From an uncultured cyanobacterium (lineage in GTDB: Bacteria; Cyanobacteriota; Cyanobacteriia; CAKZMO01), in assembly GCA_963719515.1 (NCBI GenBank), contig CAVRCJ010000001.1, positions 223,153-287,152 on the forward strand: a DNA stretch of 64,000 nucleotides. The letters run 5' to 3'. The notes below the pieces were generated by a model. It was not told where the DNA came from. It ran no database searches and saw only the letters and a program-made list of their open reading frames with translations. Both the position numbers and the translations under genes were made by a program. Shown here piece by piece: positions 2,775 through 55,818 of the stretch (its first letter is position 1; every line of letters begins with the position of its first letter).

Positions 2775-3407
2775 TTGTTTCAGTCGGCGCTTCTTTTTCC
2801 TGCAGTTATTTTTCAGACTGCCAGAAACTGGTGGCAGAGCAGCCTGAGTGCAATCCCCGTGACTAAACAACTTCACATCCAGCCCGCCAACCTGTCCGCC
2901 GCCCAGCAGCTAGCACAGTTTGCCGAGCAGGCATTCCGTGACGCATTCGCCGACGACAGCTCGCCCGACGATATGGAGACGTACATCCGCGAGTCGTTCT
3001 CCCTTAGCCGCATCCAGTCCGAGCTGGCAGACGAGGCCAACCGATTTTTTGTGGCGGTTAGCCCTGACGACGCCCTGGTGGGCTACGCCAAGCTTCGAGC
3101 CGGAACGCTAGACCCGAGCGTGTCGGGCTCAAATCCAATCGAGCTTGAGCGGATCTACGTGGGCCAAAGCGCGATTGGCTGTGGGGTGGGTGCCGCGCTC
3201 ATGCAGGCGAGCCTCACTGCTGCTCGGCTAGACGGATACCGTACCCTGTGGCTGGGGGTATGGGAGCGAAACCACCGGGCGATCGCTTTCTATAAGCGGT
3301 GGGGATTTGAGGTCGTGGGGGACCATGTGTTTCGGCTCGGCTCAGAAGATCAAACGGACCTGGTCATGGAGCGGCCCGTGGCTCCTTCCGGCGACTGTAT
3401 TGTGTGA
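2775..3407 (+). CDS. GNAT family N-acetyltransferase (start codon uncertain)
   Basis: The C-terminal core RIYVGQSAIGCGVGAALM...YRTLWLGVWERNHRAIAFYKRWGFEVVG matches GNAT motifs A and B. The N-terminal 30-40 codons look like non-coding extension. Confidence 0.7.
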   Translation: MFQSALLFPAVIFQTARNWWQSSLSAIPVTKQLHIQPANLSAAQQLAQFAEQAFRDAFADDSSPDDMETYIRESFSLSRIQSELADEANRFFVAVSPDDALVGYAKLRAGTLDPSVSGSNPIELERIYVGQSAIGCGVGAALMQASLTAARLDGYRTLWLGVWERNHRAIAFYKRWGFEVVGDHVFRLGSEDQTDLVMERPVAPSGDCIV

Positions 3408-3486
3408 CACAACAGCGGAGCCGGTGCTCGCCCATACTGAAGGGCAACTTTTAAGGTCGTTGATCCTATCGCCCGAGTCAAGTCTA

Positions 3487-4161
3487 ATGCGGCTGCTGTT
3501 GGTTGAGGATGATGTTCAGCTTGCAGACTCGCTGACCGAAATTCTAGAGTCTCAGCACTATATTGTCGATACCGTCAAAGACGGTGAATCCGGCTGGTGC
3601 CAAATGCAGCTGATGGAGTATGACCTAACGCTGCTGGACGTCACCTTGCCCTGCCTAGACGGCATTCGGCTATGTCAGCGTATTCGGGGGCAGGGGTACG
3701 GGCTGCCGGTGCTGATGTTGACGGCCCGCGACACCAGCGAAGACAAGGTGCGGGGCCTGGACTCGGGGGCGGATGCCTACATGGTGAAGCCCTTTGACCT
3801 ATCCGAGCTGCTGGCGCAGATCAGGGCATTGCTGCGCCGGGGTGGCTCGCCCCTCGCGAAGCGGCTGACCTGGAAAGAGCTGACGCTGGATCCAAGCACC
3901 TACGACGTGAGCTACGGCAGGCGGCCACTGCGGTTGACGCCCAAGGAGTTCTCTATCCTAGAGCTGTTGATGCGCAACGGACGGCGCGTTCTGAGTCGGG
4001 CCTTTGTTTTACAGTCGTTGTGGTCGATGCAAAGCCCGCCGGATGAGGAAACGATCAAGGCCCACATTAAGAGTTTGCGCTACAAGCTCAAGTCAGTGGG
4101 GGCACCTAAGGCATTGATTGAAACGGTCCACGGGGTAGGCTACCGGCTGCAGCAGCCCTAA
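3487..4161 (+). CDS. OmpR-family two-component response regulator
   Basis: MRLLLVEDD receiver start, D in LTLLDVTLP, ...LTARD..., and C-terminal winged helix (LTPKEFSILELLMRNGRRVLSR...VHGVGYRL). The ORF-track start at 3307 is an upstream extension, so the internal ATG at 3487 was chosen. Confidence 0.85.
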   Translation: MRLLLVEDDVQLADSLTEILESQHYIVDTVKDGESGWCQMQLMEYDLTLLDVTLPCLDGIRLCQRIRGQGYGLPVLMLTARDTSEDKVRGLDSGADAYMVKPFDLSELLAQIRALLRRGGSPLAKRLTWKELTLDPSTYDVSYGRRPLRLTPKEFSILELLMRNGRRVLSRAFVLQSLWSMQSPPDEETIKAHIKSLRYKLKSVGAPKALIETVHGVGYRLQQP

Positions 4162-4914
4162 TCGATCTGCGGCAGCGTCACCTGGAAGGTGGTGCCCTGC
4201 CCCACGGCGCTGCGATACGTCAGCGTCCCGTGGTGGAGCCGCAGGCAGGCGTTGACCACCGACAGCCCCAACCCCGTTCCCCCAACCTCACCCACGTTTC
4301 TCCCTCGGTAAAAGGCCTGGTAAAGGCGATCGCGATCGCGCTTGGGGATGCCAATGCCCTGGTCCTGCACTTCAAAGATAATTTGGTGGGACTGACGGGT
4401 GAGGGTGAGGGTCACCTGGGGGACAGGGCCAGAATACTTCACGGCGTTGGAGAGCAGGTTGGTCAAAATCGCCCGCAGCAGCTAGGGGTCAAGGTAGGCT
4501 TTGGCGTCACCGCTCGGTGATTTGGGCGGTGGGGCTGGTTTGGGCGCGGAGGGCGGCTTCAAAGCTGGGGCGATCGCCGTTGGTGATGACGGGAGCCCAT
4601 TCGAGGGCCTGGATGCCGGGGTAGGTGGCCAAAGCGCGCTGCACAAAGGCGTTGAAGCGATCGCGGGGAATGGGCTCTGGCGAGACGCGGTAGAAGTCGC
4701 CGAGGGCCAGCAGTACGTCGGTGTAGCGGTTGAGGCTGCGCTGCAGGGCGGTGGTGAGGCTGTCGGTTTGGCGCTGGAACTGGAGGCGATCGTGGGCCTG
4801 CTCCCAGCGGGCGACGGCCAGGCTGGCGGCGATCGATAGGCTGGTGCCGAGGAGGAGGGAGAAGGCGATTGGGGGGGTGAGGCGATGGAGGTATCGCAAG
4901 GGCGATCGCGGCAT
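4158..4914 (-). pseudogene. sensor histidine kinase remnant (CHASE-like N-terminal fragment plus HATPase_c C-terminal fragment, joined over an internal stop)
   Basis: ORF 4507-4914 encodes a TM segment plus YPGIQALEWAPVI (CHASE-like). ORF 4158-4466 encodes only the ATP-binding N-box/G-boxes (LLSNAVKYSG...DQGIGIP...GGTGLGLSVV). HisKA/H-box and linker are missing, and a TAG lies between the fragments. It is convergent with, and overlaps by 4 bp, the response regulator gene. Confidence 0.55.
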
Positions 4915-5019
4915 GGCGAGTAGCGATGGAGATATCGCGGGGGCGTTGGGTGTTGGGCGATCGGGGCGGTTGGGGCGATCGAGGTGTTGGGGCGGGTTTG
5001 GCTGGGAGGTTTTGGGATG

Positions 5020-5080
5020 TTCAGATATGTTACTGCTAAACCCGCCTGTACGGTGGGGAGGGGCGGTTGGGGAATTGGGA
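5020..5080. repeat. REP-like sequence copy (gctaaacccgcc[t/c]gtacggtg...)
   Basis: Same ~35 bp motif as at 5862-5900 and 6130-6170. It lies immediately 3' of the RAYT gene. Confidence 0.5.
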
Positions 5081-5082
5081 AA

Positions 5083-5628
5083 TTAGGGGCGGCGGGATTT
5101 TTGTTGCCATGCGGTGGGGTTGGCCTGGATATAGCGTTGGATGTTTTGCATGGCGATCGTGTCGCGAATGATGCGTTCGTAGAAGTTGCGCTGCCAGACG
5201 GAGAGTCCTGGCGTTTGGCGGATTTGGTTGATGCGTCGGGTGGAGAATGTCTTGAAGCCGCGAATGATTTCGGAAATGCTGTGACGCTTTGGGCGATTCT
5301 CCTGCGGAGATGCTGCGCAAACGCCTTTTGAAGGGGGCAGATCCATGCTGGACGGGTCGTGGTCGAGAATCAAGATACCATGCATGTGGTCGGGCATGAT
5401 GATGAATTCGTCGAGGGTTAGATGCCGATGGTGTTTTGGTAGTTTCATCCAGTGGCCTCGGGCGGTTCGTCCGATCTGGTTGAGCTGCATTTCGCCGTTG
5501 ATGACTTTGCCAAAGAGGCGATCGCGCCGGTAGGCGCAGATGGTAATGAAGTAGGCTCCGGCGGAGGTGTAGTCGTAGCCTTTGAGGCGGATTGAGCGGC
5601 GGTGGTGTCTTTGGGGGTCGTATTTCAT
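5083..5628 (-). CDS. REP-associated tyrosine transposase (RAYT, IS200-like TnpA_REP)
   Basis: MKYDPQRHHRRSIRLKGYDYTSAGAYFITICAYRRDRLFG..., HUH motif PDHMHGILIL, and catalytic Y in QRNFYERIIRD. The ORF-track frame extends 107 codons further upstream into the repeat array, so it was trimmed to the ATG at 5628. Confidence 0.75.
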   Translation of the reverse strand: MKYDPQRHHRRSIRLKGYDYTSAGAYFITICAYRRDRLFGKVINGEMQLNQIGRTARGHWMKLPKHHRHLTLDEFIIMPDHMHGILILDHDPSSMDLPPSKGVCAASPQENRPKRHSISEIIRGFKTFSTRRINQIRQTPGLSVWQRNFYERIIRDTIAMQNIQRYIQANPTAWQQKSRRP

Positions 5629-5689
5629 GAGTTGGCGTTTGGATGCATCCGTTTGCAGGATGCCCAAATGGCGCGAATCGCGAGAGGGG

Positions 5690-6245
5690 AGGATGGGCGA
5701 TGAGAATTTCGGAGGGGCGAGATGGGCGATCGCGTGGTGCGTGGATGGGGGATGGGAATTTCGGAGGGGCGAAAGGGGCGATCGCGCGGTACGTGGATGG
5801 GCGATGAAAATTTCGGAGGGGCGGGTTTGGCAGTAACGTTTTGGGCTGTTCCGATAGTTGCGGCTAAACCCGCCCGTACGGTGTGTGGAGGGGCGTTTGG
5901 GGGGATGAATTCGTGGGGCGATCGCGCGCAGCGAATTTATCGTATTCATTGCAGAATGATGGAGGGGCGATAAAAGTTTCGTCGGGGTGGGATGGCGATC
6001 GCGTGGCGCATGGATGGGCGAGGGGAATTTTGGAAGGGCGAGAGGGGCGATCGCGCGGCGTATGGATGGGCGATGAGAATTTCGGAGGGGCGGGTTTTGC
6101 AGTAACGTTTTGGGCTGTTCCGATAGTTGCGGCTAAACCCGCCCGTACGGTGTGTGGAGGGGCGTTTGAGGGGATAAATTCATGGGGCGGTCGCGTCGAT
6201 GCATCATGGAATTTGGCGTTCGTGTAGCGAATGCGCAGCATTATC
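5690..6245. repeat. two tandem ~270-bp repeat units, each with ~60-bp sub-repeats (gggcgatcgcg..gtggatggg...tttcggaggggcg) and a terminal REP-like motif
   Basis: Direct comparison of 5693-5960 with 5985-6240 shows near-identical blocks, including ggtttggcagtaacgttttgggctgttccgatagttgcggctaaacccgcccgtacggtgtgtggaggggcgtttg. Confidence 0.7.
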
Positions 6246-6262
6246 GCGTAGCATTTATCGCA

Positions 6263-6664: not shown

Positions 6665-6877
6665 ATGGGTAAGATTCGCTTGCGGATTAAGGCGCTGGTT
6701 AAGGAGCGGGGATGGACGATGAAGGAGGTTGCGAGGCGGGCGGACATTCCTTACACGACGGTTGCGACCTACGCCAATTCTCCGGGTATGGCGACGGTGG
6801 ATTATACCGCGCTGCATAAGCTGGCTCGGGTGTTCGAGATTTCTGTTGAGGAGCTGGTGGAGATTGTGGAGGAGTAA
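6665..6877 (+). CDS. XRE-family helix-turn-helix transcriptional regulator (70 aa)
   Basis: MGKIRLRIKALVKERGWTMKEVARRADIPYTTVATYANSP...LHKLARVFEISVEELVEIV matches the HTH_XRE pattern. The internal ATG at 6665 is preferred over the 158-aa ORF-track frame. Confidence 0.7.
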   Translation: MGKIRLRIKALVKERGWTMKEVARRADIPYTTVATYANSPGMATVDYTALHKLARVFEISVEELVEIVEE

Positions 6878-13049: not shown

Positions 13050-13159
13050 GCAATTAGTTCCTAGCAAAGTAATTAGTATACTTCTCTCAAAGAGAGTTTT
13101 TCGATGATAGCGCCGTCCTAAAATGAGCCGTCGATAAGGAAAATGAGGATGCCGTCGCT

Positions 13160-13410
13160 CTGAGGCGGCGGCCCGCGCCAACTATCACGACGGTGCGCTG
13201 CGATCGCATGCATGTGGGCGATCGCACGCTGCTCATCGGCAACGCGATCCATGCGGCTTCCCCCGCCATCGGCCAAGGCTGCAATGCCTCGCTGCAGGAC
13301 GTGATGGTCTTCGCCCAATGTTTAGGCGCTATGACAACGAATTGGAGCCAGCGATCACCCTTACTCTGAAGTTCTCAGGCAAACTCAGGACTGGATTGAG
13401 CGGGTTTAGG
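13160..13410 (+). pseudogene. C-terminal fragment of a paralogous FAD-dependent monooxygenase (copy of 46860-47316 region)
   Basis: The nucleotide stretch ...accatcacgacggtgcgctgcgatcgcatgcatgtgggcgatcgc...ggctgcaa.gcctcgct.caggacg..atggt.ttcgc... aligns with 46870-47040. It translates to TITTVRCDRMHVGDRTLLIGNAIHAASPAIGQGCNASLQDVMVFAQ. No 5' part is present. Confidence 0.6.
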
Positions 13411-13683
13411 TGACGGGATAGGCAACAAAGGCGGGTTTATGGCTTTGTCAATGGGAAAAACTATTCCGTCTGCCCCTCCGCCACAGGCGATCGCGGCGCT
13501 GACCAATACGACATCCGCGTGATGGACAATGGGGCTCACAGCGGCCCAAGGGCAGTCCGATTGCCAGGGCACTCACCAAGCCCAGGCGCTAGCGCAGCAG
13601 CTGGGCGGCCAGTTCCAGCGCCGCGATCGCTATCCCAAGGGCGTCTGCTGTGAACTTGTCTGGCCTGCTAGCCTCACCTAGGC

Positions 13684-22734: not shown

Positions 22735-22800
22735 AGCCACAAATAAACGGTGTGGAGGTTCGCCCCGCCGGGGGGCGAACCTCCTGTTAGCGTCGTTCAG
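22735..22800. repeat. small palindromic element (taaacggtgt.g.ggttcgcccc ... cgtcgtt.a.ttatgg) with a perfect 12-bp-stem hairpin gaggttcgccccGCCGGggggcgaacctc
   Basis: A second copy with the same ends lies at 61640-61700. Confidence 0.45.
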
Positions 22801-25800
22801 TTATGGCCTTCTACTTAATGAGCATGTTGGGTTAGAGCGCAAGCGGAATCGTACGAATTGAAGCCAATGAGCCTCTTCTAAATATCTATTGTATTGGTTT
22901 AGTTGCTTAAGACAGACCGGTTGGCTCAAAGCCTCACGTTGTGTAGGCAACTGAACGCGCAGATGGCTTTGGAGTTGATCTGTAGGACATAAACGTATAA
23001 CCATAGGTGTCGTTAAATTGTTCAACAGTGTAATTTTCTCCTCTGTTTCACGAATTATGGCTTCAGTGATTGGGGCGACTTCGTGCTGCTGTATCGCTTG
23101 TGGAGCGGTTCATAAGATTGATTGATGAGGGCGACTGGCAGCGGGTGGGAGAAAGCACGCTAAAGCGAGACCGATGGCCGGGTCTATTCTCCATCTCGCC
23201 GCCGATCGTTGAGTAGGCGTTTTGCCGACAGGCGATCACAGGCTCGGCGCATCATCAGAAACGAGCCGAGCTCTGAGATGACGGCAATGCCGCTGTTGGC
23301 AAGCAGCGATCGCCAGCATTCGAGCGCGGCTCAAAGCCCAGATTGTAGATGGCCTCTCCGACCAAAGCAGGTTGATTGACCCCGCCGGCCAATTGAGTTC
23401 GCCCATGTCTTCGGAGATGGGAAGAATCACGGCGCCAGGCTACGGGTTGGGCTGGGTTTTGAGTTCATCGATAAAAACCGGCGAGGTATCCGACCGCCCT
23501 ACGGGGGCTGATAACGCTGGGCCAGCAGCAGGGCACAGCGCCACTGCCTGACCCCAGGTCAGCGATCGTGGGCGGGCGGCAGCGTCGTAAGGCCATCTAA
23601 AATGCGGCGCGAGAAGGTGGAATTGCTGGGCCTTGGTAAGGGAGATCGTGGCGCAAGTCAACGGAAGTGGTAACGTATTGGGTCTGGTTGTCCGTGCTCA
23701 CGCCAATTGTTGCGATCGCCAATAGCAAGCGGCTTTGGTGTATAAACGCCCCCGACTCACCTCCAGATAGAACAGACCTCAACGTCGATCCTCCGCCGCA
23801 ACCAGCGGCTCGACCGAACCGTCACGAAACAGCGACGTGGGGGTCCGAAGACCCCCAGCGTTATTCGCCTCAGCAAATCCTCCGCCAAGCACAGTCCGCC
23901 CGCCCCAACATTTTCGCGGTAGACCGATAGCCCTGGTCGCGATCGCTGATGACCTTGACCTCAATCGTGTTCTGTTGGCTGTTACGCCCCAGAAGCGCAG
24001 GTCACCAACCCCTCGGCCTGGCGGTTTGGCGAGGCCCCTCCCTGACTTTGGGATCAGCGTATCGCCGAGGAACCAGCGGGCGGCGCGAAAGCGATGGCTG
24101 CCGCCAGGCACCAGCTCAACGGTGGAGGCCTGGGGGCCAGCCAGCCGCCGACGTTAGGCCGGGTCAAGATGCCTCTTCGTATTGGAAGCCTTCGCCGTAG
24201 GGGTATCGAGCAGGGCATTGGAGTGCAGCACGATGCGGGTACGATGGCGTGATCACAAATGGTGATATCGACGCCGAAAGTCCGGGTCATACTGCACAGG
24301 GACGAGGGCGGGGGGATGGGCCGAGTGGGCGGATTCGAAGATAGCTCTGGCCTGCTTCTGGGCATAAAGAAGAGGGACGATCCAGCTTGGCGAGGTCAAG
24401 AGCCCAGCGCTGCCCTCGAACGACATCTATGCTGCTGGCGACGGTGCCCTCGAGACGCTGCCCTGGGTCGATTCGCACCGTATTTTGACGCCATTGCAGG
24501 GTTCACCCAACTGCTGCTGCGCGCGCTGGAGGAGCGGGACCTCGAGATCAGACGGAAGGGTCAAACCGCAGCAGTGAACGATATCAGTCCGGAGCCCTGG
24601 GTGATGCTGCTATGATCGCACAATCATCTGGCGGACCCACGGGCTTCCCTGGGGAGATCGCAGCAGTCGGTGCTCGTTCGGGCGGAAGCTTCATCAGGGT
24701 CTCCCCGTAAGGGCGCAGGCCGAACGCGGAAAGAACGACCCGCGTTCGGCGTACAGCTTTCCCAAGCCCGCCTCATCGGCGGCATCGCCGTCAGACAGGG
24801 TACGTCTGCCGACCTGAGTTCGGTAGCGAGGGCCTTTAGCTTACCTCAGAATGTACCGGTGATGGCCTATTTAACCGAGCCGCTTGTCCCGATTGTTCGC
24901 CAAGGACCCGGCAGAGGATATGCCCAGAAATCCCGTTGCGCCAAAAATGATGAAGTCTCGCTCGGAGGTGATTGCCGATTAAATATCCTCTGTTCTCTGC
25001 GGTGATCTTTAATCTGTCGTAATCGAGAAAACTATTCCACTGGGAAGGGTGGGCAAAGATCTGTTCAGCACTTGGAAGCCCCCACTCCCAGCCTCTTCCC
25101 CGAATGCTGAGGGAAGGGAACGAGCTCCCCTCTCCCTTTCTGAGCGTGGCTGGAGGCCGTAGTGGGAGAGGGGGCCGGGGGAGAGGGCGAGGATTGCGCC
25201 AACCACATACGTGGGCAGTGCCCACCCCTACACCTTATTCTGCCAGCCTAGAATCTTCTCACAATCCCATCCCACCTTTTCTGGCCATGACTCGAACTCA
25301 AAGCCGCACAGTTCAACTGCAACGGAAGCTGCGGGCGGCTTTGGGCAGATTCTGACCCGGCAACTGTTGCGAAGGCAGTCAAAACGGGTTTCGCAGATCA
25401 TCCGTCTGCAATCTCGTCATCTGAGCTCAAAACCCTCCAGGTAGGGGGCCAGCGCGGGTAAGGTAATCGCTGTTCAGACATTGATTTGGCAGATGCTGAC
25501 GGATGCGAAGCCCCTGGATGCTGCTGTGCAGCAGCTCAAAATTGCGCTCGATGTTTCCATCAACAACGCTGGCATGGCCTCATAGGTCCGACGGACGAAC
25601 TGCCTGCTGACCGGTGGGAAATGATGCTGCAGGTCATGATGATCTCTATGCGCCTGAAGGAGCCGCTTTGCTGCCGACAGCATGTAGAGTTTAGGGCATA
25701 TCGTTGATCTTCTTGGCGGTATGGATTGCAGCGCCTGGGCTGAGCGCTTATGCTCAGAGCAATACGGCTGCGAGGCTTCAGCGAGGGCTGCGCCACTAGC

Positions 25801-26099: not shown

Positions 26100-26900
26100 T
26101 GTCAGACTGGTCCACCCACCGGTGTTGCCAGGCTTCCTCGACTATTCCCGAGACTCTTCAAGCGAAATATCATAGCGATCGCTCAGCAGCTTGGGAATGC
26201 GATCGCAGTCGCGATTGGGATTCAGGGGTGGCTGCTGGGCGTAGGCCGGTAGGGCAATGTGACACAGAAAAGGCGAGGGTTTGGCCTCGAGCTGAAAGGG
26301 TTCGAGGTTTAAGGCTGCTGTGAGTTGAGGAAAAACAGCAGGGCCTCGCTGAGATTGGCGTCGCTGAGGTTGGCGTTGGTGAGCAGGGCGCAGTTGAGGT
26401 CGGCGTCGCTGAGGTTGGCATGGCTAAAGTCAGTATCGCTGAGGTTGGCGTATCTGAGGTCGGCCCCGCTGAGGTTGGCGTATCTCAGCGTCGCCCCGCT
26501 AAATCAGCTCCGTTGAGGTTAGCGCCAATTAGGTTGACGCCGTTGAGGTCGGCCGCCTAGGTTAGCGCCGATCAGGGCAGTTCCATTGAGGGTGGCGCTG
26601 CTCAGGGCGGCCCGCTAAGGTCGGCATTGATCAAGGTGGCGCCGCTGAAGTTAGCCCCGTTGAGGTTGACCCCGCTGAAGTCGCTGCCGCCTGATCAGCG
26701 CCGCAGAAGTGGCGGTGAGGCTGAGGTCTGGGGTGTCTGCTTTGGCAGTGCGAAGCTTAAGCAACAGAAGGGCGACACCGGCAACCGCCGCAATCATCCC
26801 CAGATCACCGAGCAGGCTAGCACGGTGAAGTTGAACCAGAGCTTCGCGGGGAGACTGGTGACCATCCGGCTGCAGTCTGCGCTCAGGAGCCCCCCCCACA
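26100..26900 (-). pseudogene. pentapeptide-repeat protein, frameshifted
   Basis: The reverse strand of the 15-bp periodic repeats (gctgaggttggcgtc = DANLS) encodes A(D/N)LSx pentapeptides. The N-terminal hydrophobic segment is in ORF 26651-26908. No continuous frame exists. Confidence 0.45.
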
Positions 26901-32628: not shown

Positions 32629-32790
32629 CTTCCTCCTCGTGCCTCCTCCATAAATTTTCTATTCATTTTTGTAGGATCTCTTGATGAGAAACTCTGAAAT
32701 ATCAGCGTCCCAATGACCTGAGTTAACATAACGCTATATGCAAAAATAATAACCACTTAGCTATTATCTCAACTGGAAGAAAGCGGCATA

Positions 32791-33020
32791 ACTATATATT
32801 CAACGTCAGATCTGACGGATAACACCCTGCTTCCCAGATCTTATCAGGCATATCTGACGGATAACACCCTACTTTCCGTGATTATTCACCGCATCTGACG
32901 TCTAACTCCGGGAATCTAGGGTGTTATCCGTCGCTCTTGTCTGATAACCATGGGTTCTAGGGTATTATCCGTCACTTTTGTCAGATAACACCCCATTTAG
33001 CGGTGTTATCCCGTGATTAG
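32791..33020. repeat. attI-like array: six copies of (C)TGACGGATAACACCC(T) in direct and inverted orientation, directly upstream of the integrase-remnant start
   Basis: Homologous arrays occur at 54431-54660 (6 copies) and, degenerate, at 35450-35520. The conserved left border is caactatatattcaacgtcagatctgacgg. Confidence 0.6.
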
Positions 33021-33022
33021 CC

Positions 33023-33103
33023 ATGTCGTCATCCCAGCCTCCTCGCCTGCTCGACCAAGTAAAGCAGGTGCTTCGTACAAAGCAATTGCAGCCTCACAAC
33101 TGA
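33023..33103 (+). pseudogene. integron-integrase-like tyrosine recombinase, N-terminal 27-codon remnant
   Basis: MSSSQPPRLLDQVKQVLRTKQLQPHN* compares with the IntI/XerC N-terminal ..LLDQVRE.IR.KHYS.RTE. A stop follows, and no recombinase catalytic domain is downstream. Confidence 0.5.
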
Positions 33104-33159
33104 GGAGTCCTACATCCACTACATCCACGAATTCATCCTATTGCACGGCGATCGCCCCA

Positions 33160-33365
33160 CAGCAGAACTCCAGAACAAGCCAGCAGAACTGCCGAGTCGG
33201 TCTACAGAACTCCCAAGCAGCTCAACAGAACTCCCGAGCAGCATTTTAGAACTCCTGAGCAGGTCAGCAGAACTAGCGAGCAGCACTACTCAACTCATTA
33301 GCAGCTCAACAGAACTCCAAAGCAACAATTTAGAACTGCTAAGCAGGTCAACAGCACTCCTGAGC
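33160..33365. repeat. ~10 tandem 21-bp repeats (cagaactcc.gagcag.....)
   Basis: Visible periodicity. Homologous array at 54836-55045 is in a different reading frame, so it is not protein-coding. Confidence 0.6.
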
Positions 33366-33513
33366 CGCGATCGCCCCCCCAAAGCGATCGCCCTCCCAAA
33401 GCAGAAAACCATCCCCACCCTCTTGCCAAGCCGCGCACAAATGTCCTACCTTATGGAGCTATGAGCCACAACCCATGGTTCTAGTCTCCCAAAGATTCGG
33501 TCTGGGCGGAGCC

Positions 33514-33535
33514 GCATGTTGTATGCGCAACATGC
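33514..33535. other. conserved hairpin GCATGTTG-n6/7-CAACATGC in module leader
   Basis: The stem is identical and the loops differ (tatgcg / ttgatcc / tgacac) in the three module copies (33514, 35689, 55157). Confidence 0.5.
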
Positions 33536-33674
33536 AGCCCCTAAGCCCCCACGACAGACACTGGCTGTCGGGAACGGCCTGGAGTAATGATATTACCCGG
33601 CCATCCCAAAACCAAAAACGTCGCGGATGTCCGGTCGGCGGGGGGCTCCAATTAACTCAAAAACGGAGTCCCTC

Positions 33675-34022
33675 ATGACAACTCAATATCATTCGCTGCC
33701 TCCCAAGGCGGCACAGTTCGCAGCGCCCCAAAACCCCGCTGCGGAACCCGCAGCGCTGCGGTTAGACTCCCCCATGGAAGCCGAACCCGCTATCTCCACG
33801 CTGATTGAACCCTCCCCAGCGCCGGGCTGCGAGCATTTGCGCCACATCATCATCGGCTCCCCCGAAGGCGTGCGCCAAGCCATCAACCGGCTGCACGTGC
33901 TGCAGTACGTCGAGTGGCGGCTGTGGACCCCGCTGATTGCCATCGGCGAAAAAGGCGTCCACATCACCCCCACCCAAGGCCAAGTGCTCAGCTACCTCAT
34001 CCAGCAGCGGCCTATTCAATAG
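33675..34022 (+). CDS. conserved hypothetical protein, module copy 1 (115 aa)
   Basis: MTTQYHSLPP...CEHLRHIIIGSPEGVRQAINRLHVLQYVEWRLWTPLIAIGEKGVHITPTQGQVLSYLIQQRPIQ. A GGAG ribosome-binding site lies 7 bp upstream. Paralogues are at 35851-36198 and 55317-55691. Confidence 0.6.
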   Translation: MTTQYHSLPPKAAQFAAPQNPAAEPAALRLDSPMEAEPAISTLIEPSPAPGCEHLRHIIIGSPEGVRQAINRLHVLQYVEWRLWTPLIAIGEKGVHITPTQGQVLSYLIQQRPIQ

Positions 34023-34119
34023 CTAGCCCCAGTACTTCACAAAATACTCTGACTGCGATTTAGGGAGGGGAGGAAAGGGGGTAGAGTCAGGCTACCTAAA
34101 ATCGAACTTTAGCCATGTC

Positions 34120-35443: not shown

Positions 35444-35850
35444 TGTGGGCTAACTATATAACCAACACCTATTCAATAACACTCTACTTTCCCAAATCTT
35501 ATCAAGCAATTCTGCTAAGTAGTACTATTATATCTTTTGCGATCGCCCCCCAAAAGCGATCGCCCCACACCACACCACAAAAAACCGCCCCACCCTCTTG
35601 CCAACCCGCGCACAAATGTCCTACCTTATGGAGCTATGAGCCACAACCCACGGTTCTAGTCTCCCAAAGATTCGGTCTGGGCGGAGCCGCATGTTGTTGA
35701 TCCCAACATGCAGCCCCTAAGCCCCCACGATAGGAGTTGGCTATCGGGAACGGCCTGGAGTAATGATATTACCCGGCCATCCCAAAACCAAAAACGTCGC
35801 GGATGTCCGGTCGGCGGGGGACTCCAATTAACTCAAAAACGGAGTCCCTC

Positions 35851-36198
35851 ATGACAACTCAATATCATTCGCTGCCCCCCGAGGCGGCACAGTTCGCAGC
35901 GCCCCAAAACCCCGCCGCGAACCCATCCACGCTGCGGCTAGACTCCCCCATGGAAGCCGAGCCCGCTATCCCCACCCTCATCGAGCCCTCCCCAGCGCCG
36001 GGGTGTGAGCACCTACGGCACATCATCATCGGCTCCCCCGAAGGCGTGCGCCAAGCCATCAACCGGCTGCACGTGCTGCAGTACGTCGAATGGCGGCTGT
36101 GGACCCCGCTAATTGCCATCGGCGAAAAAGGCGTCCACATCACCCCCACCCACGGCCAAGTGCTCAGCTACCTCATCCAGCAGCGGCCCATCCGATAG
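35851..36198 (+). CDS. conserved hypothetical protein, module copy 2
   Basis: About 85 percent identical to copy 1. It follows the same leader and hairpin (35689-35711) and a degenerate attI-like stretch (35450-35520). There is no integrase remnant and no 21-bp repeats. Confidence 0.6.
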   Translation: MTTQYHSLPPEAAQFAAPQNPAANPSTLRLDSPMEAEPAIPTLIEPSPAPGCEHLRHIIIGSPEGVRQAINRLHVLQYVEWRLWTPLIAIGEKGVHITPTHGQVLSYLIQQRPIR

Positions 36199-36282
36199 CC
36201 GTCGGAACGACCCGCGATCGCCCCCAGAGCCGCCCACCTGGCCTCTAGGCGGCGATCGCCACCCCATCTCCTGCTCTGATAT

Positions 36283-41080: not shown

Positions 41081-44000
41081 ATGACTGACCCGTCTGACCA
41101 GAGTATCCGCATTAACGAAAGCGCTGTGGGTAGCGCCATTGTGTCTGGCAGCGGCAACACCGTCTATGTCATCCATCAAGCGCAGGCGCGGCAGCAAGAC
41201 CCGGTGCAGTCTGATGGTGGTGCTGGGCGAGCGTCTACGCAAATTGGCCCTAACCCCTACAAAGGGCTATCCGCCTTTCAAGAGCAAGACGCCGATCGCT
41301 ACTTTGGCCGGGAGGCGCAGGTGGCGCGGCTCTGGCAGCGGTTTCGTGAGCTGTATGAACAAGCCAATCGAGAGGATGCGCCGCCGCGATTTTTGCCTAT
41401 TTTGGGGCCTTCGGGCTGCGGGAAGTCGTCTTTGGCGCGGGCGGGGCTGATACCGGAGCTGGCCCGGCAGGCGGGGCAGATCGCTAAGGAAACCCTGCGG
41501 GTGGCGGTGCTGGTGCCGGGAGAGTCGCCGCTGAAAGCCTTGGCCGGGGTGCTGGCGAGGCTGACGCAAGATGACCAGACGCCAGAGGTGATCAAGAAGC
41601 GCAGCTACGAAAAAGACCTACGAGAGTCTGCTGCTGAGGGACGGTATGACTTTTTGCAGGACGTTGCCGAAACGCTATCCGATATCCACGTGACGCCGCT
41701 GGTGGTGCTGGTGGACCAGTTTGAGGAAATCTACTCGCTATGTAAAGACGCCAGCGATCGCCATACCTTTATCGAAACGCTGCTGCAGGCGGCGAGCAGC
41801 GCCACGGGCTACGTCACCGTTGTCATTACCCTGCGCAGCGATTTTTTGGCCGAAACCCAGCGCCACCCGCAGCTGAACCAAATCATTGGCTCTGACCGCA
41901 GCGTGATTGTGCCTGCGATGTCGGAGGCGGAGCTGCGGCGGGCGATCGCCCAACCGGCGATTCAGGCGGGGCATCCGCTGGATGATGCCGTGGTGGATTT
42001 GTTGGTGAAGGATACGGAGGGGCGGGAGGGGGCGCTGCCGCTGCTGCAGTTTGCCCTGACGCGGATTTGGGAGGGGCTGGGAGACGGGAAGACGGCTGCG
42101 GAGACCTACCGGGAGATGGATGGGGTGGGCGGTGCCCTGGCGGGGAAGGCGCAGGAGATTTATGACCGGCTGCCGGAGGCGGAGCAGGCGATCGCCCGAC
42201 GGGTGTTTGTGGGACTGGTGCAGCTGGGGGAGGGGACGCGGGATACGCGGCGGCGGGCAGAGGTGGAAACGCTGATGACCAGTCGCGATAAGCCGGAGGC
42301 AGTGAAGCAGGTGATTGGTCAGTTTTCGTCGCCGGGGGCGCGGCTGGTGACGCTGTCGGGGGAGGAGGGCCAGGGCGTTGCTGAGGTGACCCATGAGGCG
42401 CTGTTTGACCATTGGCAATTGCTGAATGACTGGCTGGATGCTAACCGCGACGATATCCGCTTTCAGCGGCGACTGGAGGCAGCAGCGGGGTATTGGGAGA
42501 AGCAGGGAAGGCCGGATGGGCTGCTGTGGCGGCCTCCAGATTTGGATTTGCTGCGGGGTTTTGCGCAGAAGGCGCAGCTAGACATGACCCCGCTGGCGAC
42601 TGACTTCTATGAGGCGGCAGATGCGGCTGAGCGGCAAGAAAAGCGGCGGCGACGGTTGAACCTCTATGGGTTGAGGGCTGGCTTAGTTGTTATGACAGTC
42701 CTCACCAGCTTTGCTGGATTCAAAGTCAACCAGGCTGGGCGCAGGCAAATGCAATATTACGCTGAGAGGGCAGAGAATCTCGGCAGTTCTGACCCACTCC
42801 GTAGCCTTGTCAATGGCTTAGCCGCCATCCAGCTCAGTCGTTCAACCCTTCTTAAAGCCCCGTTTGTCTGGCAGTCTTCGCGTTTCACCTCAGCCATTCT
42901 AGATATACCCAACCGAACAAAGCGCTTTGGTTATGGAATGGGCCATTCATCTCGGGTTCGTTCAGTTGCCATCAGCACCGACGGCCAGACCATCGTCAGC
43001 GGTAGCGATGATGATACGGTGCGGCTGTGGGACCGGCAGGGCAACCCCATCGGCCAGCCCTTCAGCCATTCATCTCGGGTTAATTCAGTTGCCATCAGCA
43101 CCGATGGCCAGACCATCGTCAGCGGTAGCGTTGATGGGACGGTGCGGCTGTGGGACCGGCAGGGCAACCCCATCGGCCAGCCCTTCGAGGGCCATTCATC
43201 TTGGGTTAATTCAGTTGCCATCAGCACCGATGGACAGACCATCGTCAGCGGTAGCTTTGATAATACGGTGCGGCTATGGGATCGGCAGGGCAACCCCATC
43301 GGCCAGCCATTCGAGGGCCATTCATCTGAGGTTAATTCAGTTGCCATCAGCGCCGATGGCCAGACTATCGTCAGCGGTAGCCGTGATAGAACAGTGCGGC
43401 TGTGGGACCGGCAGGGCAACCCCATCGGCCAGCCCTTCGAGGGCCATTCATCTTCGGTTAATTCAGTTGCCATCAGCACCGATGGCCAGACCATCGTCAG
43501 CGGTAGCTCTGATAATACGGTGCGGCTGTGGGACCGGCAGGGCAACCCCATCGGCCAGCCTTTCAGGCATTTAGATTCGGTTTATTCAGTTGCCATCAGC
43601 AACGACGGCCAGACCATTGTCAGCGGTGGCCTTGATAGAACAGTGCGGTTGTGGGACCGGCAGGGTAACCCCATCGGCCAGCCTTTCGAGGGACATTCAT
43701 CTTTGGTTAATTCAGTTGCCATCAGCAATGACGGTCAGACCATTGTCAGTGGTAGCAGTGATGATACTGTGCGGCTGTGGAACCGGCAGGGTAACCCCAT
43801 CGACCGGCCTTTTGAAGGTCATTTAGATTCGGTTTTGTCAGTTGCCATCAGCAACGACGGTCAGACCGTCGTCAGCGGCAGCAGTGATAGAACGGTGCGG
43901 CTGTGGGACCGGCAGGGCAGCCCCATCGGTCAGCTGCTTGAGGGACATTCAGATTCAGTTAGTTCAGTTGCCATCAGCAACGACGGCCAGACCGTCGTCA

Positions 44001-44791
44001 GTGGTAGTGTGAATGGAACGGTACGGCTGTGGGACCGGCAGGGCAGCCCCATCGGCCAGCCTTTCAGCCATTCGGATTATGTTCATTCAGTTGCCATCAG
44101 CAACGACGGTCAGACTATCGTCAGCGGTAGCACTGACAGAACGGTACGGCTATGGGACCGGCAGGGCAATCCCATTAGCCAGCCTTTTGAAGGCCATTCA
44201 TCTTCGGTTTTGTCAGTCGCCATCAGCAACGACGGTCAGACTATCGTCAGCGGTAGCATTGATAATACGGTGCGGCTATGGGATCGGCAGGGTAGCCCCA
44301 TCGGCCAGCCTTTCAGTCATTCAGATTCGGTTTATTCAGTTGCCATCAGCAACGACGGTCGGACCATTGTCAGCGGTAGCTTTGATAGAACGGTACGGCT
44401 GTGGGACCGGCAGGGTAACCCCATCGGCCAGCCTTTTGAAGGCCATTTATCTCGGATTAGGTCAGTTGCCATCAGCACCGACGGCCAGACCATCGTCAGC
44501 GGTAGCATTGATAATACGGTGCGGCTGTGGGACCGGCAGGGTAACCCCATAGGCCAGCCGCTCAAGGGTCATTCATCTTCGGTTATGTCAGTCGCCATCA
44601 GCACCGACGGCCAGACCATTGTCAGCGGTAGCTTTGACAAGACGGTGCGGCTGTGGCCTATATGGCTATCAAGTGGCTGGATTCCCTACACCTGCGATCG
44701 CCTCAAAGGATACCTGTTAGTCGTTGGCCAAACCGACGATGACGCCGCCCGCGAAGCCCTCCGAGCCTGCCGCCGCTACGCCTGGAAATAG
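41081..44791 (+). CDS. NACHT-family STAND NTPase with 14 C-terminal WD40 repeats
   Basis: Walker A ILGPSGCGKSSLARAG, and Walker B LVVLVDQFEEIY. A long helical region is followed by 14 WD40 units of the GHSS.V.SVAIS.DGQTIVSGS.D.TVRLWDRQGNPIGQPF type. Confidence 0.85.
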   Translation: MTDPSDQSIRINESAVGSAIVSGSGNTVYVIHQAQARQQDPVQSDGGAGRASTQIGPNPYKGLSAFQEQDADRYFGREAQVARLWQRFRELYEQANREDAPPRFLPILGPSGCGKSSLARAGLIPELARQAGQIAKETLRVAVLVPGESPLKALAGVLARLTQDDQTPEVIKKRSYEKDLRESAAEGRYDFLQDVAETLSDIHVTPLVVLVDQFEEIYSLCKDASDRHTFIETLLQAASSATGYVTVVITLRSDFLAETQRHPQLNQIIGSDRSVIVPAMSEAELRRAIAQPAIQAGHPLDDAVVDLLVKDTEGREGALPLLQFALTRIWEGLGDGKTAAETYREMDGVGGALAGKAQEIYDRLPEAEQAIARRVFVGLVQLGEGTRDTRRRAEVETLMTSRDKPEAVKQVIGQFSSPGARLVTLSGEEGQGVAEVTHEALFDHWQLLNDWLDANRDDIRFQRRLEAAAGYWEKQGRPDGLLWRPPDLDLLRGFAQKAQLDMTPLATDFYEAADAAERQEKRRRRLNLYGLRAGLVVMTVLTSFAGFKVNQAGRRQMQYYAERAENLGSSDPLRSLVNGLAAIQLSRSTLLKAPFVWQSSRFTSAILDIPNRTKRFGYGMGHSSRVRSVAISTDGQTIVSGSDDDTVRLWDRQGNPIGQPFSHSSRVNSVAISTDGQTIVSGSVDGTVRLWDRQGNPIGQPFEGHSSWVNSVAISTDGQTIVSGSFDNTVRLWDRQGNPIGQPFEGHSSEVNSVAISADGQTIVSGSRDRTVRLWDRQGNPIGQPFEGHSSSVNSVAISTDGQTIVSGSSDNTVRLWDRQGNPIGQPFRHLDSVYSVAISNDGQTIVSGGLDRTVRLWDRQGNPIGQPFEGHSSLVNSVAISNDGQTIVSGSSDDTVRLWNRQGNPIDRPFEGHLDSVLSVAISNDGQTVVSGSSDRTVRLWDRQGSPIGQLLEGHSDSVSSVAISNDGQTVVSGSVNGTVRLWDRQGSPIGQPFSHSDYVHSVAISNDGQTIVSGSTDRTVRLWDRQGNPISQPFEGHSSSVLSVAISNDGQTIVSGSIDNTVRLWDRQGSPIGQPFSHSDSVYSVAISNDGRTIVSGSFDRTVRLWDRQGNPIGQPFEGHLSRIRSVAISTDGQTIVSGSIDNTVRLWDRQGNPIGQPLKGHSSSVMSVAISTDGQTIVSGSFDKTVRLWPIWLSSGWIPYTCDRLKGYLLVVGQTDDDAAREALRACRRYAWK
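42927..44650. repeat. 14 tandem 120-bp repeats (WD40-coding) with very high nucleotide identity
   Basis: Each repeat recurs almost base for base, and differences cluster at 4-5 codon positions per unit. Confidence 0.8.
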
Positions 44792-46040: not shown

Positions 46041-47315
46041 ATGCAAAAGATCGTCATTGTCGGCGCTGGCCCAGCGGGACTCTTGCTCGCCCACTATCTT
46101 CTAGCGCGGGGCCGCTACCACATCGAGCTCTACGATCGCCGCCCCGATCCCAGGCAGGTCGACTTATCCAGCCAGCGCACCTACCCAATCTCGCTGCAGC
46201 TACGCGGCATGACGGCGATTCGCGCCATCCCTGGGCTAGAAGACCGGCTTACCGAGCGCGGCGTTTGGTCCCAGGGCTCACTGATGCACCGCAAATCCGG
46301 CGCGCCGCGAAAGATAAACCGCAAGACGCCGCTGCTGCTGATCGACCGCAACCAGCTGGTCTTGGCCTTGCTGCGATCGCTACTAGAAACTTACGACGAC
46401 GGCAGCGTAGCCATTCGGTTCGACTGTCCCTGCACCGCCGTCGACCTCAAGGCCCAGAGCGTCACCTTCCAGCCAGCAGGCCCTCCCGTCACGACCCGTT
46501 TCGATCGCCTCGTCGGGGCAGATGGGGTGCGATCGCAGGTGCGCGACGCGCTGGTAGCGGCGGGCAAACTGCAGTGCGAGCAGGCGCTAATCCCCGACGC
46601 CTACCGCTCCCTGTTTGTCCGTAGGACCAGTTCTGATAAAGCTTTGGCGGAAGACCGGGTTCACGCCTGGTTCATGGGGCAGGACACCCGGACGGTGATG
46701 GCCCCTCAGCTCGACGGCTGGCTGCACGGAACCTTTGTCTTTCCCCGCGATCGCGATCCTTTGGCATCTTTCGAGACCGCAGAGGCGGTCCTTGCCTACT
46801 TTCAAGCGGCCTGCCCCAGCCTAGGACAGCTGATGACCCTTGAGGAGGCCGACGCTCTTCGGCAGCGGCCCGCGTCAACCATCACGACGGTGCGCTGCGA
46901 TCGCATGCATGTGGGCGATCGCGCGCTGCTCATTGGCGACGCGGTCCACGCCGTTTCTCCTGCCATTGGACAGGGCTGCAACGCCTCGCTACAGGACGCC
47001 ATGGTGTTCGCACAGATGCTAGAGCGCTACGACGACGATTGGCGTCAGGCGCTACCGGCGTTTACCGCCCAGCGACTGCCTGATGTTCATGCGCTGCGGG
47101 AGCTGTCGGACTACAGCTTCCCTCGCTCGGCTCGCCTCAGGGTGGAGTTCATTTTGCGCCTCACGTTGGGAAAGCTGCTGCGCCGACGGCTCCCGCAGTT
47201 TGCTAAGCCGTGGCTGAAGCCGTTGCCCATGGAGCTAGTCATGGACAGCGACCTTTCTTACGCTACGGTTCTTGGGCGAACCCAGGGCTGGATTGAGCGG
47301 GTGAAGCGGGCTTAG
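46041..47315 (+). CDS. FAD-dependent monooxygenase (UbiH/KMO-like)
   Basis: N-terminal MQKIVIVGAGPAGLLLAHYL (GxGxxG) and C-terminal DRALLIGDAVHAVSPAIGQGCNASLQDA. Confidence 0.8.
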   Translation: MQKIVIVGAGPAGLLLAHYLLARGRYHIELYDRRPDPRQVDLSSQRTYPISLQLRGMTAIRAIPGLEDRLTERGVWSQGSLMHRKSGAPRKINRKTPLLLIDRNQLVLALLRSLLETYDDGSVAIRFDCPCTAVDLKAQSVTFQPAGPPVTTRFDRLVGADGVRSQVRDALVAAGKLQCEQALIPDAYRSLFVRRTSSDKALAEDRVHAWFMGQDTRTVMAPQLDGWLHGTFVFPRDRDPLASFETAEAVLAYFQAACPSLGQLMTLEEADALRQRPASTITTVRCDRMHVGDRALLIGDAVHAVSPAIGQGCNASLQDAMVFAQMLERYDDDWRQALPAFTAQRLPDVHALRELSDYSFPRSARLRVEFILRLTLGKLLRRRLPQFAKPWLKPLPMELVMDSDLSYATVLGRTQGWIERVKRA

Positions 47316-54345: not shown

Positions 54346-54430
54346 GGCGGTGTCTGTTCCAGCGAAGTGTTGTGTTGGCGCTCTCGCTAACAGGGTTCCC
54401 GAGCGGCAACATATAGCCTGCGTCGACACA

Positions 54431-54660
54431 ACTATATATTCAACGTCAGATCTGACGGATAACACCCCACTTCCCAGATTTTATCAGGCATATCTGCTGG
54501 ATAACACCCTACTTCCCGTGATTATCCGCCGCATTTGACATCTAACCTCGGAAATTCAGGGTGTTATCCGTTACTTTTGCTAGATAACCCTGGTATCTAG
54601 AGTGTTATCCATCGCTTTTGCTGGATAACACCACCATATCGGGCGTTATCCAGGAGTTAA
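54431..54660. repeat. attI-like array: six GGATAACACCC-type repeats (direct and inverted), homologous to 32791-33020
   Basis: Shared left border caactatatattcaacgtcagatctgacggataacaccc. Confidence 0.6.
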
Positions 54661-54662
54661 TT

Positions 54663-54746
54663 ATGCCACCATCACAATCGCCCCGTCTGCTTGACCAGGT
54701 AAGACAAGTCCTTCGTACAAAGCGTTACAGCCTCAAAAAAGCCTGA
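54663..54746 (+). pseudogene. integron-integrase-like tyrosine recombinase N-terminal remnant (27 codons)
   Basis: MPPSQSPRLLDQVRQVLRTKRYSLKKA* is the best-preserved copy of the IntI-type N-terminal ..LRLKHYSLRTE. Confidence 0.5.
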
Positions 54747-54835
54747 GTCTTCGTAATTGCTGGCCAAAGGCCAATTCCTATTCATCTGCACAAGTTTGCT
54801 TCATTACGTGCAGCGATCGCCCCACAGCAGAACTC

Positions 54836-55045
54836 TCAAGCAATTCAGCAGAACTGCCGAGTCGGTTTACAGAACTGCTGAGCAGCATTTTAGAACTGCC
54901 GAGCAAGATCCCAGAACTGCTGAGCAAATTAGCAGCACTAGCCAGCAGCCCTGTTCAACTCAGCAGCAGCTCAACAGAACTCCAAAGCAGCAATTTAGAA
55001 CTGTTGAGCAAGTTAGCAGCACTCCCGAGCCGCGATCGCCCCCCT
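54836..55045. repeat. ~10 tandem 21-bp repeats (cagaactgc.gagca......), homologous to 33160-33365
   Basis: Periodicity visible. The reading frame differs from copy 1. Confidence 0.6.
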
Positions 55046-55316
55046 GGGCAAAAACCACCCCTACCCTCTTGCCAACCTGCGCACAAATGTCCTACCTTAT
55101 GGAGCTAAGAGCCGTCCACGGTTCTAGTCTCCCAAAGATTCGGTCTGGGCGGAGCCGCATGTTGTGACACCAACATGCAGCCCCTAAGCCCCCACGACAG
55201 GCATGGGCTGTCGGGACGCCTGGAGTACATGTTACCCGGTCATCCCACCTCCCAAAAACGTCGCGGATGTCCGGTCGGCGGGGGACTCCAACACAATTCA
55301 CAAAATGGAGTCCCTC

Positions 55317-55691
55317 ATGACAACTCAATATCTTTCGCTGCCCTGCGGGTCGGCACAGTTTGCAGCGGCCCAAAACCCCGCTGCGGACCAGTCAGCGCTG
55401 CGGCTAGACTCGCCCCTAGAAGCTGAACCTGCTATCCCCACGCTAGTCGAGCCTTCCCCAGCTCCGGGGTGCGTTGGCCCTTCAGGGCCAGTCGAAGACT
55501 CACACCTAAGGCACATCATCGTTGGCTCCCCCGAAGGCGTTCGCCACGCCATCAACCGGCTGCATGTGCTGCAGTACGTTGAGTGGCGTCTGTGGACACC
55601 CCTAATCGCCATCGGTGAGCAGGGCCTCCATATCACCCCCGCCCAAGGGCAAGTGCTCAGCTACCTCGTGCAGCAGCGCCCCATCCGATAG
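55317..55691 (+). CDS. conserved hypothetical protein, module copy 3 (124 aa, most divergent copy)
   Basis: ...SHLRHIIVGSPEGVRHAINRLHVLQYVEWRLWTPLIAIGEQGLHITPAQGQVLSYLVQQRPIR; same leader and hairpin (55157-55178). Confidence 0.6.
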   Translation: MTTQYLSLPCGSAQFAAAQNPAADQSALRLDSPLEAEPAIPTLVEPSPAPGCVGPSGPVEDSHLRHIIVGSPEGVRHAINRLHVLQYVEWRLWTPLIAIGEQGLHITPAQGQVLSYLVQQRPIR

Positions 55692-55818
55692 TCGCCCCTA
55701 AAGCGATCGCCCCCCAGGTGCTGACCATGAGGGGCGATCGCCTATTTCAACAAGCTGTGCCGCGAGCTAGTCTGGCACGCCAAACGTAGCTTTTGCCATC
55801 GCGACAGAGAAGAGTGGG

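Follow-up and report, generated by a model that had tools for sequence, protein, structure and literature searches.

Known RAYT systems and the locus

RAYTs of subclass 2.4 (Quentin et al. 2018, PMC6006769), which Bertels et al. 2017 (PMC5581495) call Group 4, are abundant in Cyanobacteria and Bacteroidetes and are accompanied by long REPs with three G-C pairs or a double foot (PMC6006769). They carry the motifs NH[IFV]H, WQ, and YIxNNP, and their REP feet read GT[AG]G ... C[TC]AC (PMC6006769). REP insertions within the gene are described for the subclass, and the HuH-Y spacing is enlarged and variable, with a median of 88 aa (PMC6006769). The 16-mers flanking Group 4 genes occur about 14 times per replicon, and the pattern described for RAYTs is a domesticated one, unlike that of an IS (PMC5581495). 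No biochemistry on subclass 2.4 was reported in the literature examined.

The locus described here lies in a 64-kb stretch of DNA (the window). It is probably a chromosomal single-copy RAYT of subclass 2.4/Group 4 with a cognate REP family, a reading to which we assign a probability of roughly 0.62. It resembles the subclass in its cyanobacterial host, the WQ motif, the HuH-Y spacing of 85 aa, the REPs flanking the gene, the lack of a conserved C-terminal extension, the long three-G-C or double-foot REP, and the apparently low copy number of the flanking repeat; the closest relatives of the protein also have an in-frame REP within the gene. It differs in the motifs DHMH and YIQANP, a shortened C-terminus, the absence of an in-gene REP (which is frequent, not obligatory, in subclass 2.4), REP feet of GTAC and GTNG/GGAG, and upstream REPs embedded in nested 269-bp/52-bp tandem repeats. 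Judged by these features, the window RAYT would be a slightly deviant member of subclass 2.4, and the locus is an ordinary example, known in kind, of a class already described.

Two further systems share part of this organization. E. coli TnpA_REP has the same set of HUH, Tyr, and Asn residues and gave the best superposition, and its REP/BIME elements likewise include gene-flanking hairpins, a foot tetranucleotide on an imperfect hairpin, and tandem REP clusters. However, the E. coli REPs are ~35 nt long, GTAG-tagged, and present in hundreds, whereas the window hairpin is ~65 nt long, has a large variable loop, and is apparently low-copy. In the REPIN-RAYT system of Pseudomonas (Bertels & Rainey 2011, PMC3116915), inverted short half-sites also form one long hairpin, and a single-copy, vertically inherited transposase also stands beside REPIN copies, but the REPIN populations there number in the hundreds and accompany Group 2/3 RAYTs; none such was seen in the window.

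Window context and features

The window has 54% G+C, the HIP1 octamer GCGATCGC occurs in it 75 times, and the nearest protein matches came from Elainellaceae, Leptolyngbyaceae, and Kovacikia. By these sequence measures, the window is cyanobacterial in character. The features of the locus and its neighbours are listed in Table 1. The RAYT cassette, a homologous block extending from about 4985 to 6260 with one REP 3' and two REPs 5' of the gene, stands in a G-rich stretch between a two-component pair and an XRE-type gene, where the plus-strand GC skew is +0.33 to +0.54. The promoter and terminator scan found neither a promoter-like site nor any terminator at the REPs, no Rfam family was matched by the RAYT locus or the whole window, and peptides translated from the REPs in six frames had no scoring match in the protein database.

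Table 1. Coordinates of the RAYT cassette and adjacent features (positions in the window)
Feature	Position	Strand	Remarks
Response regulator	3307-4161		Two-component pair
Histidine kinase remnants	4158-4914	minus	Two-component pair
G-rich short tandem repeats	4881-4994	plus	Periods of 17-20 and 41 nt; from the histidine-kinase gene start to REP A
REP A	4973-5072	plus	Hairpin GGGGCGGGTTTGGC-loop-GCTAAACCCGCCTGTACGG and G-rich tail; 3' of RAYT
RAYT CDS	5083-5628	minus	TnpA_REP-like HUH/Y1 nuclease (predicted); 181 aa, likely start MKYDP, intact
RAYT 5' leader	5629-5690	minus	Palindrome GGATGCATCC; conserved with the L001 orthologue
52-bp sub-repeat array 1	5691-5823	plus	2.6 copies, 88% matches, score 217
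Tandem duplication, 269-bp period	5725-5926 and 5994-6195	plus	Copies 92% identical
REP B	5802-5926	plus	Inverted repeat; 24-nt arms, 19-nt loop, ~45-nt conserved tail to HIP1 site
52-bp sub-repeat array 2	5994-6092	plus	1.9 copies, score 156
REP C	6071-6195	plus	Hairpin and tail; hairpin core 98% identical to that of REP B
Cassette outer edge	6196-6260	plus	AT-richer short repeats (GCGCAGCATTTATC, two copies); still alignable with the L001 outer flank
XRE-type gene	6665-6877

The RAYT gene and its product

The open reading frame at the locus spans 288 aa as a run-on through stop-free C-rich repeats. MKYDP is the start in all homologues except one, and a start at this point, giving the CDS in Table 1, is likely. 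The stop codon and the last codons fall in the tail of REP A, in which the C-terminus is cut short, and the distance from the stop codon to REP A is 11 nt.

The key residues of the protein are D80-H81-M82-H83, W145-Q146, and Y166-IQA-N170-P, and H81, H83, W145, Y166, and N170 were invariant across an alignment of about 113 relatives. The Pfam profile PF01797 (Y1_Tnp) gave a marginal match above its cut-off (25.0 versus 23 bits, over residues 113-169 only), and many of the 7943 homologues of the protein were annotated with PF01797. NCBIfam NF047646 (REP_Tyr_transpos) was the top model with 61.2 bits, under its cut-off of 80, and the TnpA_IS200 profile NF033573 was not matched (20.1 bits against a cut-off of 55). 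When solved structures were searched by sequence, E. coli TnpA_REP (4ER8) was the sole match (~18% identity, phmmer E-value of 0.02), and the alignment paired DHMH with EHMH and YIQANP with YIYINP.

The structure predicted from a 10-sequence alignment was too poor for use (pLDDT of 53). The AF2 model based on the alignment of ~113 sequences reached a pLDDT of 84.6 and was confident except for an insert at residues 95-110. All of the top 30 Foldseek matches in the PDB were Y1 transposases (E-values of 4e-7 to 1.4e-4); the best superposition was obtained with TnpA_REP (4er8_A; TMq of 0.57, rmsd of 3.2 Å), compared with rmsd values of 5-14 Å for the IS608, ISDra2, and IS200 chains. The comparison with the TnpA_REP family that the initial annotation had proposed was favourable in both the best NCBIfam model, although sub-threshold, and the best superposition.

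On profile, motif, and modelled fold, the gene is predicted to encode a nuclease of the HUH/Y1 superfamily. The presence of a RAYT at the locus, claimed earlier, was borne out, and the stretches DHMHGIL and WQRNFYERII are both present in the protein. NFYERI had been read as the motif of the Tyr transposase, but the catalytic Tyr motif is instead YIQANP (Y166).

Among the 113 closest relatives, NH[VIL]H was found in 93, together with WQ and mostly YIxNNP; the window protein keeps WQ, and it shares DHMH and YIQANP with an orthologue that is 81% identical and located in an Elainellaceae MAG (locus L001). The HuH-Y spacing among 103 relatives had a median of 93 and a range of 64-152. The peptide VGAG...KPAPT, encoded in-frame by a REP, was present in 43-63 of the 113 closest relatives, and the covariance model recognized no in-gene REP within 5083-5628 of the window. 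The 81% orthologue likewise has no recognizable in-gene REP, and its C-terminus, too, is truncated in the tail of the REP downstream.

Between the window RAYT and its 81% orthologue, dN/dS was 0.12 and dS was 0.65, and a syntenic response-regulator gene of the same two genomes had a dS of 0.67 and an omega of 0.10. By these substitution rates the RAYT gene is under purifying selection and thus functional, and its divergence, with a dS equal to that of the syntenic gene, has kept pace with that of the chromosome. No RAYT paralogue was found within the 64-kb window, the exact protein is known from a single contig, and plasmid matches were three, all distant. One copy in the window and on one contig, a genome-like dS, and few plasmid matches together point to the domesticated pattern rather than to an IS.

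REP hairpins

The motif GCTAAACCCGCCCGTACGGTG occurs three times on the plus strand, at 5035 (with one mismatch), 5863, and 6132, and had no match in any of 100 shuffles. These are the three REP-like copies that had been noted around the gene, and each proved to be a hairpin arm: the copies form the 3' arms of ~65-nt hairpins, whose 5' arms (GGGGCGGGTTTGGC) start at 4989, 5818, and 6087, about 45 nt upstream of the motif. The three hairpins share one orientation and the layout GGGGCGGGTTT-loop-AAACCCGCCC-GTACGG, in which two inverted half-sites GC(Y)AAACCCGCCC are separated by a variable loop of ~35 nt. The stem GGGCGGGTTT/AAACCCGCCC begins with GGG/CCC, which places three G-C pairs at its bottom.

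Folded as single-stranded DNA of the plus strand, the three REPs gave z-scores of -3.6 to -4.2 against shuffles (REP A, -11.1 kcal/mol and -3.55; REP B, -19.2 kcal/mol and -4.23; REP C, -4.06). Their covariance-model scores were 86.5 bits for REP A (4973-5061), 84.7 bits for REP B, and 85.7 bits for REP C. The REP foot is GTAC on the minus strand, where REP A reads 5'-GTAC-AGGCGGGTTTAGC..., and GTTG (REP A) or GGAG (REP B and REP C) on the plus strand. The canonical foot tetranucleotide GT[AG]G is absent from the three REPs of the window, and a GTAG foot is present at three homologue loci (L056, L057, and L058).

The covariance model (R1) was built from 17 cyanobacterial copies found by the 3' arm alone, and in these the 5' arm GGGGCGGGTTT was invariant or nearly so. 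The arm-to-arm distance was constant and the loop variable in copies from relatives, and no compensatory stem changes were found among the cyanobacterial copies, whose stem is invariant in sequence. Conservation of the stem as sequence, without compensatory change, fits recognition of both sequence and shape by a protein.

Homologues that are ~52-56% identical (from Kovacikia minuta and another assembly) share the GGGGCGGGTTT...AAACCCGCCC hairpin, carrying GTAGGGGCGGGTTT...AAACCCGCCCCTAC both upstream and in-frame inside the gene. An in-gene REP was seen in the relatives at L056, L057, and L058, and the in-gene palindrome of an Oculatella homologue is shortened. Going by these sequences, the REP stem GGGCGGGTTT is conserved even among RAYT homologues of only about 50% identity.

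Tandem repeats of the cassette

The RAYT start is separated from REP B by 190 nt and from REP C by 459 nt. Both REPs are 5' of the gene, at the ends of the two copies of the tandem duplication (269-bp period), and each copy consists of 52-bp sub-repeats followed by the REP hairpin and its tail. The initial annotation described two tandem upstream units of ~270 bp ending in a REP, which agrees with this period, and gave their sub-repeats as ~60 bp, which should be corrected to 52 bp. Each unit of array 1 carries the HIP1 octamer and the motif AATTTCGGAGGGGCG. Both arrays lead straight into the 5' arm of a hairpin, the last unit of array 1 running into REP B. The 52-bp units resemble the ~53-nt post-hairpin tail from GTACG to GCGATCGCGCG, and we conjecture from this resemblance that they may be hairpin-less REP units. 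A CRISPR-like array or an RNA gene was considered for the units and rejected, because they are contiguous, have no spacers, and match no RNA family.

Parts of the cassette outside the hairpins are also shared with the Elainellaceae MAG. The tail of REP B is conserved with the copies at L001 and on another contig of the MAG (L054), and blastn homology between the window and L001 extends through 5673. The G-rich repeats at 4881-4994 are expanded compared with the orthologous spacer in L054.

Copy number and dispersal of the REP family

The covariance model, run with filters off, found no additional REP copy in the 64-kb window, the next match scoring 8.6 bits. With zero extra REPs in ~63 kb, the number in a 6-Mb genome is bounded, roughly and at the 95% level, to about 290 at most. 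Two loose matches to the motif were rejected as family members: one at 12251 is coding sequence, and the other (13399-13440) consists of two direct GCGGGTTTA words without a hairpin in a paralogous block.

A scan of the query GCTAAACCCGCCNGTACGG against 185,579 species-representative genomes returned 54 stretches with the exact 19-mer, mostly a Bacteroidota variant, and the metagenome collection contained it at five loci, with tandem arrays. A near-identical REP arm is present in Saprospiraceae. One relative MAG has at least six REP copies on five contigs, with no RAYT in the flanks examined; at another relative locus, a copy lies 5 kb from the RAYT gene; a metagenome contig carries four tandem copies and half-sites; and a further relative MAG has a solo copy. 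Relatives hold both solo and tandem REPs at sites removed from any RAYT. As far as these searches indicate, the REP family in relatives is dispersed but low-copy, in agreement with the published figure of about 14 occurrences per replicon (PMC5581495), and low-copy dispersal in the source organism is plausible.

The initial annotation had taken the locus for the genome's REP generator and had named uniqueness of the motif to the locus as the observation that would count against this. Within the 64 kb, the motif is indeed confined to the locus, and relatives hold dispersed copies. A RAYT with its own REPs and the low-copy dispersal in relatives agree with the generator interpretation, but the lack of a copy beyond the locus in 64 kb does not; the interpretation was partly supported, being right in kind (a RAYT with REPs) and overstated in scope.

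The confinement of the REPs to the locus and the rarity of the exact 19-mer in the genome and metagenome collections are also what would be expected of a relic or retargeted RAYT, selected for a host function and no longer mobilizing REPs, with the hairpins as ancestral flanks. The 269-bp and 52-bp repeats would then be products of ordinary slippage or unequal crossover in a G-rich, HIP1-rich spacer, as their simple head-to-tail sub-repeats allow, and purifying selection does not require REP mobilization. We consider this explanation unlikely, as relatives carry solo and tandem REPs at several RAYT-free loci and as the comparison of cassettes described below points to continued change at the REPs.

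Comparison with relatives and alternative explanations

In the cassette at L001, two REPs stand in tandem upstream of the gene with a period of 166 bp, one REP stands downstream of it, and there is also a half-site; the cassette shares the layout REP-REP-gene-REP with the window. It is located between a SCO4226-like gene and acs, and the window cassette is located between His-kinase and XRE/cyclase genes. L054 of the same MAG is syntenic with the window over 3395-4912 and carries a solo REP (at 5018-5100 of L054), the positional orthologue of REP A; this solo REP is followed by an unrelated transporter gene and not a RAYT. In its loop and hairpin it resembles REP A, and in its tail REP B and REP C. 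The gene-flanking hairpin cores were 95-98% identical within a genome and 83-88% identical between genomes, and the synteny between the window and its relative ends exactly at a REP.

The comparison indicates, at the level of sequence, either REP turnover or concerted evolution, together with a rearrangement that had its breakpoint at a REP; the RAYT and host recombination would be equally compatible as agents of the turnover. Both the higher identity within than between genomes, which suggests ongoing copying or conversion, and the synteny break at a REP argue against a RAYT that no longer acts on its REPs.

The hybrid solo REP at the site corresponding to the window cassette, with the cassette itself elsewhere in the MAG, is the basis for supposing that the REP-RAYT-REP block is still mobile as a unit, either by RAYT action or by REP-REP recombination through a circle that leaves a hybrid solo REP behind. 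This seems quite unlikely to us; if true, the locus would be a still living transitional form linking autonomous IS200-type elements with fully domesticated RAYTs, and the 52-bp units without hairpins would be footprints of excision that mark the enzyme's cut sites.

The same observations, namely a cassette conserved as a block between different neighbours and a solo REP at an "empty" site, could also be explained by an autonomous IS200-like element whose left and right subterminal ends are the hairpins and which transposes as the whole REP-gene-REP unit. Members of IS200/IS605, such as IS608 and ISDra2 with their TnpA proteins, share with the locus the fold, the chemistry, a presumed ssDNA substrate, and hairpins that lie subterminally on both sides of the gene, directly oriented on one strand, like those of IS200/IS608. 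We regard this as improbable, as the IS200 HMM scored 20 bits against a cut-off of 55, the RAYT is present as one copy on one contig, its dS matches that of a neighbouring chromosomal gene, in keeping with vertical descent, and the family is essentially absent from plasmids; moreover, excision in IS200/IS605 is seamless and would leave no hairpin at an empty site, and solo hairpins without genes exist.

Enterobacterial REPs stabilize upstream mRNA, and REP A is 11 nt past the RAYT stop codon, but the idea that the hairpins are mainly RNA or DNA structural signals for their neighbours (a 3'-end stabilizer, an attenuator, or a protein-binding site) beside an incidental transposase is highly improbable, given that the REPs have no T-tract, terminator-like call, or Rfam match, that the stem is sequence-invariant rather than conserved in structure by compensatory changes, and that homologous genes contain this sequence in-frame.

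Proposed mechanism

E. coli TnpA_REP and the TnpA of IS608 suggest, by analogy, a mechanism for a subclass 2.4 RAYT with a cognate REP family, and from them we infer the catalysis and the substrate strand. The RAYT would bind the folded hairpin and its foot on single-stranded DNA. H81 and H83 would coordinate a metal ion, and Y166 would cut beside the hairpin, forming a 5'-phosphotyrosine intermediate; rejoining of the strands could then duplicate, remove, or move REP units. The REP is a long hairpin of the double-foot/REPIN type whose two feet read GTAC and a degenerate GTNG, and its family appears low-copy rather than a genome-wide flood.

We read the tandem REPs beside the gene, the 52-bp units that lack a hairpin, and the near-identical REPs of a genome as products of this RAYT activity or of recombination or slippage between REPs. 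We infer that the RAYT, and not host recombination, generates the REP copies; the homogeneity of REPs within a genome can equally result from gene conversion or slippage.

Significance of the locus

The locus opens no new question, and its use lies in being a clean, intact example of a little-studied cyanobacterial RAYT subclass. It allows an unusually informative comparison with the relative, in which the orthologous cassette stands elsewhere in the chromosome and a solo REP marks the "empty" site. Because the stem is conserved across ~50%-identical homologues and a near-identical arm is found in Saprospiraceae, the RAYT and its REP make a reasonable enzyme-hairpin pair for in-vitro study.

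An unrelated hairpin repeat of ~75 nt was observed at two dispersed sites in the window, and the REP flanking the RAYT is therefore not "the" repeat of the genome.

REP types and the RAYT clade

A variable insert in some homologues of the window RAYT (P0048, P0100, and P0110) encodes CRGEAFA...NASP. This peptide would correspond to a further REP type, GTAGGGGCGAAGCATTCGC..., translated in frame, and its occurrence in these proteins suggests that a single RAYT clade is associated with several REP types. The gene of a Saprospirales RAYT (L012:1832-2593, minus strand), whose product shares ~54% identity with the window protein, contains an in-frame double-foot REP, the sequence of which (GTAGGGGTGCCCCTTGCGGGTACCC ...) differs from that of the window REP.

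A short REP, 5'-GTACCGGCGGGTTTAGCCGCCG, was found in multiple copies in Bacteroidota genomes (L003:5560-6420, L012, L018, L020, L040, and further Saprospiraceae/Chitinophagales loci) as singles, inverted pairs, and tandems. Compared with the cyanobacterial REP arm GTACGGGCGGGTTTAGC, it has one mismatch over the first 17 nt. At L003, a RAYT with only ~24% identity to the window protein lies between copies of this short REP.

On a metagenome contig (L059:1252-1710), four full REPs in tandem with a 107-nt period precede half-site units that lack the hairpin (CCAAAYCCGCCCCTACGGGTTATC), two or three in number. The array parallels the window cassette, where full and partial units are also mixed.

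Strand asymmetry and the adjoining kinase

Strong strand asymmetry was observed over the entire cassette (window 4880-6260), including the coding region. The plus strand is G-rich (37-47% G) with numerous G3-G5 runs, and thus the RAYT coding strand is C-rich.

The histidine kinase gene adjoining REP A, the hairpin 3' of the RAYT gene, is broken, with a junction near 4466-4512. The syntenic contig of an Elainellaceae MAG encodes an intact orthologue of 636 aa (L054:3263-5173). Compared with it, the window gene lacks ~988 bp comprising the remainder of CHASE and HisKA, and ~10 nt at the junction are common to both blastn alignments against L054.

Other repeats

A second hairpin repeat of ~75 nt, CCAYAARTAAACGGTG...GGTTCGCCCC...CGTCGTT.A.TTATGG, is unrelated to the REP of the RAYT. 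No matching family was retrieved for it in the Rfam search, and it folded well as single-stranded DNA (z of -4.6 and -4.1). Its dispersed sites are listed in the table together with the remaining repeats of the window, among which the longest paralogous block is ~1.2 kb.

Coordinates of the broken kinase and of repeats other than the REPs (window positions unless a locus is named)
Feature	Position	Strand	Description
Histidine kinase	4158-4914	-	N-terminal CHASE (135 aa) and C-terminal HATPase_c (102 aa) fragments brought side by side
Second hairpin repeat, window	22735-22807; 61654-61712		Two dispersed sites
Second hairpin repeat, other cyanobacterial loci	L035:2-59; L001:14130-14196		
Tandem array	42816-44741		126-nt unit, at least 12 units
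15-nt repeats	26342-26682		Pentapeptide-type
Paralogous blocks, first set	32784-34025; 35532-36201; 54424-55694		
Paralogous blocks, second set	13144-13405; 46841-47302
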